Source: Ionaspis alba (Eukaryota). Taken from it: a stretch of DNA of 24,356 nt. A program made the translations under genes and the position numbers. The stretch lies in the NCBI GenBank assembly GCA_964255285.1, contig CAXUUL010000006.1, positions 62,001-86,356 on the forward strand, in the 5' to 3' direction. Below the pieces are notes generated by a model. It was given only the letters and a program-made list of their open reading frames with translations, was not told where the DNA came from and ran no database searches. Positions within the stretch are counted from its first letter, which is position 1. Each line of letters starts with the position of its first letter. Below, one piece after another: positions 263-3,007 of this stretch.

Positions 263-810
263 TCGCTATCCGACTCGTGGACCAAAGGCGCTGGCTTCTA
301 GAGCCTAATCTCTAGAGGCTCCCCAGACACTTTGCGAAACTATCGTAGCTCGTTGCTGAGTTATCTCGGCTTTGAGCTCAAAGCATAATCGGCGGCCAGC
401 CCGCTGCCATCGTCCTGGCAGACGAGGGCCCCCCATCTATTCACACCCCCATCGCTCCCGACTCCCCAACCACCTCGATCACCCCACAAGCTTCTATTGC
501 CACACCAAACTCAGCACCCCTCTTGTCATCTATACAGGTAGTTGACGATCTTTCAGCACACCCAGCAGGAGTCCTACAGCAGTCCTTGGATTACTCGCCA
601 TCAAACTCCGCCTCTCCTTTCCAATCTATAATCCGACCCACCAGGCGACGACGTCGAAGATCATCTTCTGAGCCGACGGAGCCAGAGGATTCAATCGAAC
701 CAAGAAGGCCGTCTGGCACGGCGGGAGAAGACGATCCACAAAGAGGTACACGGGGGCTTGATCTGGGTACTCGAAGAGGGAGGCCTTCCTCGCCAAAGCG
801 CCCACGCCTT

Positions 811-3007
811 ATGAGCAAAGACATGCGTTTAGATTCCGACAATTCAAACTCAACTTCGAACGGTACACGGTATCATGCAAATGGGGCTTCACCATCCCTC
901 TTCGGAAAGGGGTCAACACCAGCTGCTACCAACGGATATGCACATACGAATGGCCATGCCTCACCCTACACAAATGGGTCTTCTTCGGTGACAGCGAATC
1001 CAAAGCCACCAACGTATTACGGACATGACCGGGAAGAGGTTGTCCGCTTGCTAATACAGGGCTTGAGCGATTTAGGCTATCAAGGGGCAGCCAATCAATT
1101 AGTTCAGGACAGTGGCTTCGAACTTGAAAGTCCCACGGTGGCGGCATTCCGACATGCCATCCTTGAAGGCGAATGGTCGGAAGCAGAGTCGTTATTGTTT
1201 GGTTCATCTTGTCCCGAAGACGGTGGCGGTGTTAGCATTAGTAATGGGCACACAACCCGTAACGATGGCCTTGTCTTGGCACAAGGGGTTGACAAAGATG
1301 AATTGAAGTTTCGGTTGAGGAGACAGAAGTACTTGGAGTTGCTTGAGCTACGGGATCATGGTGGAGCCTTGATGGTGTTACGGCAGGAGCTGACCCCTTT
1401 ACATCAAGATGTTGGCCAACTCCACGTGCTTTCTGGGTTAGTCCTTCCACCGGACCCTTACAAAGTCTCACTTTGGTTTTTTGTCCCTGCTAACAAAATT
1501 AACACACTAGTCTCATGGTTTGCCAGTCCGCTGACGAGTTGAAAACACAAGCTGGCTGGGATGGAGCCCACGGATCATCGAGGAAGACTTTGCTGTCAGA
1601 GATGTCAAGTTTGTAGAAGAATCTTTCTCCTCTAATAAGTGTCTAATAACTATCTTCAGAGTCGATATCACCATCTGTCATGATTCCTGATCACAGATTG
1701 GCTGTCCTGTTAGATCAAGTCAAGCAGAATCAGATCTCCAGATGTCTCTATCACAATCCTACCACATCGTCGTCGCTATTCTCAGACCACATCTGTGACC
1801 GGACTCAGTTTCCAGATCAGACCATTCTAGAGCTCAAGCAAGCCGACGAGGTCTGGTTTCTTGAATTTTCGCACGACGGGAAAATGCTAGCGACAAGCGG
1901 CCAAGACCATGTTGTAACTATTTACGACACTTCAAACTTCCAGATCGTGCACACGCTGACGGAACATTCTGATCCTGTTGCGTACTTGGCGTGGAGTCCC
2001 GATGATTCCAAGTTGATCACTTGTTCTCATGATCGGACTGCCAAAGTATGGGATGTAGCTGTGCGTTCAGCCCTGAATACAGATTTCCTTTTGTTATCTA
2101 TGCTAATGCCTATACAGTCTGGTCATTCCATTTTGAAAATCAATAACTTCAATGAACCGGTCACCTCTGCTGCTTGGGCTCCGGACGGTCAGACGTTTGT
2201 TACAGGATCCCTCGACATACAATCACAACTGTGCAGCTGGGATTTGCAAAGTGGCCGGAAACTCTATACATGGTCGAGTAATTACAGAGCGAATGACCTT
2301 GCCATATCCCGTGATGGACGTCGACTTATCACCATCTCGTCGGAGAAACAGATTTTCGTCTACAACCTTATTACCAGGGAAGAGGAATATTGTCTGAGGC
2401 TGAAGACTAAGATGACGTGTATCAGCATCAGTCGAGACTCCAAATACATGCTTGTTAACATGGCCGACAACGAGCTACAAATCTTTGAGATAGACACTGC
2501 CGAGATTGTCCGAAGATTCATAGGCCAGAAGCAGGGCGAATATGTGATCCGAAGTACCTTCGGTGGGACGGACGAGAATCTCATTATCAGTGGAAGTGAA
2601 GGTAGGAGAAACACTAGATTCTTTTTAGGGCTAATACTAACACAACTCTTAGATGGACACGTATACATCTGGCACAAAGAAAATGGCAGTCTGATCGAAA
2701 CTCTCCCTGGGCATGGCAGCGGTTGCGTTAATGACGTAGCATGGAACCCCGCAAACCCTGGCATGTTTGCATCCGCTGGCGACGACAAGAAAGTCCGGAT
2801 GTAAGTTCATTCGTTGTTTATATAAGCTGCAACCTCAAAATTGATCCTCCCACATGGGTCACGGGTCTTGCTATCTGGAGGCTAAGATATCACAGATGGT
2901 CCAGAGATACCTCACCCAACTCGAATAGGCGCCGCATCAGCACTCACGAGCCACGTCGTGTTCACTTTGCGCGATCCTCCTGGGAAAGTTCAACGACACT
3001 AATCTGA
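811..3007 (+). CDS. GID7: GID/CTLH E3 ligase WD40 subunit (Gid7/WDR26-like): LisH-CTLH plus WD40 repeats. 622 aa from the first ATG; ~754 aa if initiated at CTG 415
   Basis: Exons 811-1436, 1511-1608, 1660-2060, 2118-2601, 2653-2800, 2896-3007 (1869 nt, in frame); all introns GT..AG with CTAAC/CTAAT/CTAAG branch-like sites. LisH-like 'REEVVRLLIQGLSDLGY..AANQLVQDSG', CTLH 'FRHAILEGEWSEAE...RQKYLELLE', 'MIPDHRLAVLLDQ...CLYHN', WD repeats 'EVWFLEFSHDGKMLATSGQD', 'GQKQGEYVIRSTFGG', 'VNDVAWNP..PGMFASAGDDKKVRIW'. The true start is uncertain (see findings). Confidence 0.88.

Follow-up and report, generated by a model that had tools for sequence, protein, structure and literature searches.

The stretch of DNA analysed here, referred to as the window, comprises 24,356 nucleotides (nt) of Ionaspis alba contig CAXUUL010000006.1. 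Its + strand carries a six-exon GID7/WDR26 gene (415-3007), which probably gives rise to two proteins through leaky scanning, namely a long form initiated at CUG 415 and a short form initiated at AUG 811 or AUG 823. Its domains and orthologues identify the gene product as GID7/WDR26, a subunit of the GID/CTLH ubiquitin ligase. GID/CTLH is a conserved ubiquitin ligase with metabolic and developmental roles, and WDR26/Gid7 governs its supramolecular form and part of its substrate recognition. The codon CTG at 415-417 (+ strand; context ATCGTC CTG GCA, with G at -3 and +4), which is kept with its context across loci whose nearest named relatives belong to at least five classes of Pezizomycotina, is very probably the start codon of the long form.

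In the proposed mechanism, scanning ribosomes would traverse an AUG-poor leader, and a fraction of them would initiate at CUG 415 (GUC CUG G) to produce a protein of 754 residues and 83.2 kDa. The first 132 residues of this long form would constitute a disordered extension rich in serine, proline, and arginine, which includes the basic clusters RRRRRR and KRPR. For ribosomes that pass the CUG, the next 396 nt are free of AUGs in all frames. These ribosomes would start at AUG 811, which lies in a weak context, or at the conserved AUG 823, yielding clusterless proteins of 622 residues (69.0 kDa) or 618 residues (68.6 kDa), respectively. Both forms are presumably made in Ionaspis alba. The ratio of CUG to AUG initiation would set the nuclear share of the ligase, if the clusters are import signals.

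Relatives of the gene were collected from two sources. The translation of 376-1434 was searched against 5.8 billion proteins, with longer proteins only being considered. This search gave 160 matches, 120 of which are listed (P numbers). An alignment of 25 sequences was used to assess motif invariance. In addition, metagenome contigs of the Joint Genome Institute (JGI) were scanned with the alignment: 595 stretches matched, 149 of these encode a relative, and the best 80 of the 149 are treated as loci (L numbers). By their nearest named protein, the loci resemble Lecanoromycetes, Leotiomycetes (Diplocarpon, Pseudogymnoascus), Sordariomycetes (Colletotrichum), Dothideomycetes (Alternaria, Paraphoma, Lindgomyces, Meristemomyces, Zasmidium), and Eurotiomycetes (Helicocarpus, Polytolypa). 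The motif marking the start site was found on the protein level first, and the codons were read only afterwards. The site is carried by 66 of the 80 loci, which together with the window gives 67 sequences. The 14 loci without it comprise ten truncated contigs that end inside or past the extension (L011, L023, L033, L055, L064, L069, L073, L074, L077, and L078), L034, and the group L060, L061, and L063. Clustering at 60% identity of the extension gave 42 clusters, and one representative of each was used for the ATG counts.

At the position of CTG 415, the homologous leucine or valine codon is CTG in 63 of the 67 sequences and GTG in four (L065, L070, L071, and L072), all of which are Colletotrichum-like. 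Counted by cluster, CTG is present in 38 of 42 and GTG in 4 of 42. Elsewhere in the same exons, CTG accounts for only 22% of the leucine codons. The base at -3 is G in 64 of the 67 sequences and A in the remaining 3, and position +4 is always G (67/67). No in-frame ATG is located between the upstream stop and the site in any of the 67 sequences; in the 66 loci with the site, none precedes the conserved Met that lies approximately 60 to 70 residues before the LisH motif. The upstream in-frame stop is found 3 to 172 codons 5' of the site. In 11 loci (L066, L067, L039, L050, L058, L059, L076, L018, L021, L022, and L035) this distance is only 3 to 7 codons, so that the CTG is the only start available there. 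In L010, L012, L019, and L025, the interval from the stop to the conserved block that immediately precedes the CTG contains no near-cognate codon. In the window, the upstream bound of the open frame is the in-frame stop TGA at 373-375 (+ strand), 14 codons 5' of the CTG, and a TGA also stands at the homologous place in L005, L010, L015, and L017. An earlier note on this DNA, made from its letters alone, had offered two start candidates, CTG 415 and ATC 409. The former is borne out by the counts of CTG and GTG, but the latter was rejected because its codon is not conserved, with the homologous codon reading TTC, GTC, ATC, CTC, GAA, or TCC in relatives. A survey of relatives for ATG depletion and a fixed near-cognate codon, which the note had also proposed, revealed both, the codon being CTG or GTG.

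By comparison with its orthologues, the N-terminal extension (415-810, + strand), which comprises 132 codons and is free of ATGs in all three frames, is conserved coding sequence; the orthologue alignment and substitution rates are the basis for this assignment. Among the matches listed, the top ones belong to lichen-forming fungi, specifically three Xylographa species, Icmadophila, Sticta, Pycnora, Teloschistes, and Candelaria. These matches cover 96-99% of the query (376-1434) and therefore include the portion upstream of 811. Orthologues from Diplocarpon, Sclerotinia, Alternaria, and others are likewise aligned through 376-810 with shared motifs. Along the extension, the 25 aligned sequences display [V/D]LAD[E/D] at the 5' edge, D.P.TP, RRRRR, and KR.R, and a wider form of the 5' motif, [V/D][L/V]A[D/N], is common to the 66 loci and the window. 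The extension alone is 45% identical to that of Xylographa pallens P0002 (E 3e-12). The ratio of non-synonymous to synonymous substitution rates (dN/dS) of the extension is 0.33-0.77 in 19 out of 19 computable pairs, with one further pair being saturated, which fits a constrained yet disordered region. The extension is S-, P-, and R-rich, has an isoelectric point of 9.9, and is predicted to be disordered. AlphaFold, run on the alignment, gives a predicted local distance difference test (pLDDT) score of 36-57 and no secondary structure up to approximately residue 210, followed by confident LisH-CTLH helices. The low pLDDT together with the shared motifs characterises the extension as a disordered tail with short conserved motifs. 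In every locus reaching far enough upstream the frame is open from the stop, and the first in-frame Met is found 100 to 250 codons further on. The earlier note had proposed a conserved open frame in Pezizomycotina as a check, and had named stops or frameshifts in the orthologous region of close relatives as refuting. The frame is kept in 66 of the 80 loci, and not one of these 66 site-carrying loci has a stop or frameshift in the region. A short intron at 538-556 (19 nt), or other splice sites named in that note, was rejected as unneeded, as the extension is collinear with its orthologues.

Depletion of ATGs is observed in the relatives as well. Between the CTG or GTG and the first in-frame ATG (237 to 426 nt), the 42 representatives contain 4 ATGs in any frame, compared with an expectation of 72.8±6.3 and a minimum of 57 in 200 dinucleotide shuffles. 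The extensions of 50 distinct sequences contain 7 ATGs versus 152 expected from composition. All 7 represent one conserved +1-frame ATG in a Leotiomycete-like group (L024, L025, L029, L030, L038, L039, and L043), located 47-56 nt before the main AUG. The open reading frame (ORF) that begins there has 1 codon in L025, 7 codons in L039, and 19 codons in each of the other five loci. Judging from the flanking bases, the TAG of the 19-codon ORF ends one nt before the main AUG, an arrangement that would permit termination-reinitiation. Across the 42 representatives, the ratio of observed to expected ATGs is 1.1-1.7 beyond -550 from the CTG. Over the interval -500 to -1 it drops from 0.9 to 0.05, between 0 and +250 it stays at 0.0, and directly after the first AUG it reaches 1.4-2.7. 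This is the profile of a scanned AUG-poor leader, a weak start, and then an AUG-free stretch that ribosomes must cross, and it is unlike that of an intron.

Within the window, the GID7 frame is open from 376 to 1542. Its first in-frame ATG, at 811, lies 145 codons past the stop and 132 codons past CTG 415, and the sole + strand ATG within 1-810 is that at 251. Neither strand of the window contains an ATG-free run longer than that between 251 and 811 (560 nt), and the next-longest runs measure 327 and 317 nt. Base composition predicts 8.8 ATGs in 1-810 and 5.8 in 254-810. In 1000 dinucleotide shuffles of 254-810, the mean number of ATGs is 3.86 and 0.4% of the shuffles are ATG-free; for 415-810, dinucleotide shuffling gives a mean of 2.39 and 4.9% ATG-free sequences. 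Taken alone, the ATG signal of the window is suggestive, and it becomes decisive once other fungi are compared. The earlier note had placed the sequence features accurately: the TGA at 373-375, the open frame of 145 stop-free codons from 376 to ATG 811, the lack of a + strand ATG between 254 and 810 with only one (ATG 251) in the first 810 nt, GCC-ATC-G at 409, GTC-CTG-G at 415, RRRRRR at 643-660, and PKRPRL at 793-810. Its figure of roughly a dozen ATGs expected by chance was too high, as seen from the 8.8 predicted by composition for 1-810 and the 3.86 of the shuffles for 254-810. The core of its proposal, a non-AUG extension with leaky scanning to an AUG, agrees both with the window, which has no AUG between the two starts, and with the count of 4 versus 72.8±6.3 in the relatives.

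Two AUGs are candidates for the start of the short form. The first in-frame ATG (811-813, + strand) is situated in a weak context with C at -3 and, according to the alignment, occurs in the lichen-fungus group only. In 15 lichen-fungus-like sequences including the window, the conserved AUG is preceded, by a few codons, by such an additional AUG whose -3 position is C. The conserved ATG (823-825, + strand; 'MRLD', G at -3) is the probable main start of the short isoform, and its M150 is invariant in 25 of 25 aligned sequences. All 52 sequences that possess this M[RK] AUG have a purine three nt before it (-3). A downstream AUG for a short form, as previously suggested, thus exists, but the conserved one is 823 rather than 811.

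The 3' part of the leader (345-414, + strand) is conserved, with GCGG at 392-395 and CCGC at 401-404 being invariant in 8 of 8 lichen-fungus sequences. In these eight sequences, GCGG-N5-CCGC (392-404) displays no covariation. The conserved block 5' of the CTG more likely represents context of the start codon or a small hairpin than coding sequence. A second hairpin, UCGUC-CUGGCN-GACGA (410-425), would place the CUG in its loop. It was considered and rejected, as it is retained throughout the lichen-fungus set but not in other classes. The Pleosporales-like loci L021, L022, L035, and L051 have a possible hairpin, CCCGC-N7-GCGGG, approximately 21-38 nt before the CTG, which in L051 reads CCTGC-N7-GCAGG and differs by one compensatory change. 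Two sequencing runs yielded DNA contigs only: X1 is identical to the window and may be its source, and X2 contains the same organism at low depth together with one contig of a relative. Neither run provided a transcription start site, a splice, or a divergence that could be used. In X2, one contig matches approximately 24 nt around the CTG core (410-433) and diverges afterwards. The 30 letters before 410 in this contig translate to FPAVKPQL and resemble the Xylographa models, which points to the presence of a related fungus in run X2.

Further upstream, ATG 251 opens a tiny putative upstream ORF (uORF), ATG CCA CCA TAG (MPP*; 251-262, + strand), in a weak context (T at -3) and 164 nt before the CTG. 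Short uORFs occur at comparable places in related loci, which suggests that the transcribed leaders extend at least to these places and may involve reinitiation. A 4-codon uORF (ATG, three codons, and stop) is found approximately 100 nt before the CTG in the Pleosporales-like loci L014, L021, L022, L026, L031, L035, and L051. L019, L025, L030, and L041 contain, at 237-314 nt before the CTG, a conserved 24-codon uORF in a good context (A at -3), which ends in ...[IV]H[AI]P[SI]D* and resembles a conserved-peptide uORF of Leotiomycete-like GID7 leaders. In L066 and L067, a 6-codon uORF (MLGPEQ*) is located in the GID7 frame 27 nt before the CTG, with its TGA two codons before the CTG.

The extension contains two basic clusters, both of which are seen in the sequence and the alignment. 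The first, RRRRRR, is encoded at 643-660 (+ strand) and followed by SSS. Of 61 distinct sequences, 49 have a run of at least four R/K residues in the earlier portion of their extension. The second, KRPR within PKRPRL, is encoded at 796-807 (+ strand) directly before the AUGs. All 25 aligned sequences share its K141, R142, and R144 without exception, and 59 of the 61 have K[KR]x[KR] or a four-basic cluster among the final 25 residues of the extension. Both clusters had been described in the earlier note as part of a P/S/T-rich extension; they are present and conserved, in an extension that is S/P/R-rich. The consensus of a classical monopartite nuclear localisation signal (NLS) is K-K/R-x-K/R, a pattern that KRPR fits. 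Since both clusters are located upstream of the AUGs, the short form loses both, and a long nuclear form alongside a short form without the NLS would be a reasonable interpretation. A different role of the clusters within the same two-form structure is possible, though somewhat doubtful. Instead of serving as import signals, they would act as an internal pseudo-substrate or as a nucleolar or nucleic-acid-binding patch. As a pseudo-substrate, they would fill the propeller's own basic-motif site and auto-inhibit the long form. Such a role is consistent with the conservation of both clusters and their joint loss in the short form, whereas the fit of KRPR to the classical monopartite pattern speaks against this putative binding function. 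Human WDR26 recognises a basic motif of NMNAT1 that overlaps the NLS of NMNAT1, as stated in the pertinent part of the report (PMC7616709), so the clusters could be an internal pseudo-substrate.

Initiation at CUG 415 has to be weighed against three other accounts of the region upstream of the AUGs. Translation may start slightly further upstream, at ATA 385 or ATC 388 (A at -3, G at +4), either instead or additionally, which would add 9-10 residues (IIGGQPAAIV) before LADE. In the alignment, ATC 388 corresponds to the Met annotated for Candelaria P0030 (MGGSPAAF versus IGGQPAAI). Lichen-fungus and Leotiomycete-like sequences have a conserved GG.PA block in common, and ATH codons occupy that place in L001, L005, L015, and L041. 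However, the codon varies, being GAC in L010, TTC in L012, and GGA in L017. Furthermore, the 11 loci with a stop 3-7 codons before the CTG have it inside or after the block, and L010, L012, L019, and L025 offer no near-cognate codon between stop and block. Initiation at this place is considered improbable. Because annotated Met residues are found 7-18 residues ahead of the site, slight upstream initiation in some lineages is kept as a minor rival. It is less probable still, and distinctly unlikely, that an exon with an AUG is spliced into the frame just before VLADE, making the CTG an ordinary leucine codon. Several public models are built in this way (P0001-P0003), and potential acceptor AGs exist upstream of the CTG in several loci. 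Yet the 6 nt that precede GTC CTG contain no conserved acceptor-like AG, with L047 lacking the AG of its relative L050, and the three Xylographa models place three unrelated upstream peptides before the shared TGSEVFPAVKPQLFVLADE. The ATG depletion upstream of the CTG (observed/expected 0.05-0.9 from -500 to -1) fits a scanned leader rather than an intron. In the window, the sole upstream ATG is 251 (MPP*), and the only GT adjoining it begins GTCGCT, unlike the five donors of the gene. Ordinary leucine coding would also leave unexplained the presence of CTG in 38 of 38 leucine clusters, the switch to GTG, and the fixed -3 and +4 positions. Finally, 376-810 would be an untranslated 5' leader if the open frame and the lack of ATGs resulted from avoidance of upstream AUGs and chance. 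By a rough estimate, 145 stop-free codons have a chance of approximately 1% at the composition of the window, and the 4.9% of ATG-free shuffles of 415-810 is likewise compatible with this account. The conservation of frame, motifs, and a dN/dS below 1 over 66 loci and many named species, together with the 45% identity of the window's extension to that of Xylographa, makes it hardly credible.

The preferred explanation, a CUG-initiated long form and an AUG-initiated short form, also faces observations that weigh against it. Among the matches listed, 52 are extended public models in which the site is recognised, and ten of these have a Met 7-18 residues ahead of it; examples, known as protein models alone, are P0030 MGGSPAAFVLADE, P0055, P0005, and P0064. 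If the AUGs of those 10 models are real, translation starts slightly further upstream there. The GG.PA block 5' of the CTG is conserved, with some third positions varying, and could code in some lineages. Pairwise BLAST of the extension with Alternaria P0064 gave no significant match, and across classes the extension is similar at the level of motifs and architecture only. In L034 the frame is open with no recognisable motif, while L060, L061, and L063 have an upstream frame of only 27 codons before the Met and no extension. These three may represent a lineage that lost the extension, or one with an intron there; their identity to Pyrenophora and Zopfia proteins is approximately 50%. The motif was chosen by eye on the protein level for 30 loci, the taxonomy of the loci is that of the nearest named protein only (44-100% identity), and the loci are related sequences rather than independent trials. 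The action of the basic clusters as nuclear import signals is argued from their pattern alone, and we infer it on that footing.

Exon 1 (415-1436, + strand), delimited by Pfam, the alignment, and the gene model, contains the extension, the LisH motif, and the probable CTLH region. It is followed on the same strand by exon 2 (1511-1608), exon 3 (1660-2060), exon 4 with the WD40 propeller (2118-2601), exon 5 (2653-2800), and exon 6 (2896-3007), which ends with the stop TGA at 3005-3007. All five introns are of the GT..AG type: 1437-1510 (GTTAGT..TAG, 74 nt), 1609-1659 (GTTTGT..CAG, 51 nt), 2061-2117 (GTGCGT..CAG, 57 nt), 2602-2652 (GTAGGA..TAG, 51 nt), and 2801-2895 (GTAAGT..CAG, 95 nt). In Pfam, the translation of 415-1434 matches LisH_WDR26 (PF23627) with 56.3 bits against a cut-off of 27, and the CTLH-containing domain PF21889 reaches 24.2 bits, which is under the cut-off of 27, with exon 1 alone being searched. 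AlphaFold predicts confident helices at residues 219-352, the LisH-CTLH region. The WD40 part (1506-2801) is 64% identical to residues 412-790 of Icmadophila P0004 in tblastn, and WD40 families are matched in the orthologue P0002, a result that concerns the orthologue's propeller and not the window's own.

Public models of the gene disagree on its start, which is expected where no AUG exists. Among the 120 matches listed, 30 are short forms, 52 are extended models that put between 7 and 623 residues before a recognised site, 26 have no recognised motif, and 12 lack the LisH anchor. Many Dothideomycete models (1192-1538 residues) are fused to an upstream glycoside hydrolase family 1 (GH1; PF00232) gene, namely P0032, P0040, P0048, P0051, P0058, P0060, P0061, P0074, P0081, P0084, P0090, P0094, and P0100. 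These fusions probably arose because gene predictors ran upstream seeking an ATG. Most public fungal GID7 models are accordingly wrong at the N-terminus, being short forms, models with invented exons, or fusions with a neighbour, and a CUG start would be concealed in hundreds of fungal genomes. The predicted, unannotated proteoform of 83 kDa with two basic clusters has presumably been overlooked in experiments on fungal GID complexes.

The significance of the start lies in its breadth across Pezizomycotina, its recurrence in the same gene family in animals, and the systematic mis-annotation. No description of a non-AUG start in fungal GID7 was found by full-text literature searches, with subscription-only papers outside their scope. 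It is conceivable, though rather unlikely, that GID7/WDR26 is under selection for two proteoforms via a non-AUG start in fungi, flies, and vertebrates, with the ratio between them being possibly regulated in Pezizomycotina. Such selection would imply either an ancient opisthokont trait or three convergent inventions, and the lineage-specific leader uORFs (24-codon and 4-codon) could tie the choice of start to the status of eIF2. If this is true, nutrient stress would retune how much of the GID ligase bears the basic extension, which could send the ligase to the nucleus or act as a pseudo-substrate for the basic-motif pocket of the propeller.

The closest known system is WDR26 of animals. The earlier note had named human WDR26 among genes with a conserved non-AUG extension, which is correct according to Ivanov et al. 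2011 (PMC3105428). The pertinent sections of that paper describe a conserved WDR26 extension initiated at ACG/CUG in vertebrates and at AUU in Drosophila, judge the vertebrate and fly extensions to be mutually independent, and cite a western blot with a commercial antibody in which human WDR26 gives two bands approximately 10 kDa apart. In the part of a 2022 study that bears on it, WDR26 is among the genes without an annotated near-cognate proteoform in GENCODE v35 (PMC9789052). The fungal gene resembles vertebrate and fly WDR26, as far as the sections on these genes describe them, in belonging to the same family and in having a conserved AUG-less extension, a near-cognate start, and a downstream AUG for a shorter form. 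The features by which the relevant section of Ivanov et al. 2011 defines such extensions, an AUG-less stop-bounded frame, coding conservation, and a conserved near-cognate codon at the 5' edge, are all found here. The fungal case differs in occurring in Pezizomycotina, in its S/P/R-rich extension with RRRRR and KR.R, and in its start, which is CUG, or GUG in Sordariomycete-like loci. As vertebrates and flies have non-AUG starts in the same gene, tractable fungi such as Neurospora or Aspergillus could serve to address why WDR26 needs two N-termini.

Two fungal systems provide further comparison. In Neurospora crassa cpc-1, near-cognate-initiated N-terminal extensions are conserved in Pezizomycotina, as set out in the passages on this gene in Ivanov et al. 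2017 (PMC5487733). Both cases are fungal and share a long conserved in-frame region before the AUG, conserved near-cognate codons, and uORFs in the leader. However, on the account in those passages, cpc-1 has several candidate near-cognate codons and uORF-controlled reinitiation, whereas GID7 has one invariant CUG/GUG and an extension cleared of AUGs. Leaky scanning and near-cognate starts have also been described for aminoacyl-tRNA synthetases of Cryptococcus by Wallace et al. 2020 (PMC7049704), the pertinent passages of which make no mention of WD40 proteins. As in the synthetases described in those passages, a weak upstream start in GID7 would give a longer form with a targeting signal, and a downstream AUG a shorter form. 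The Cryptococcus extensions treated there carry mitochondrial presequences, whereas that of GID7 carries basic clusters resembling nuclear signals.

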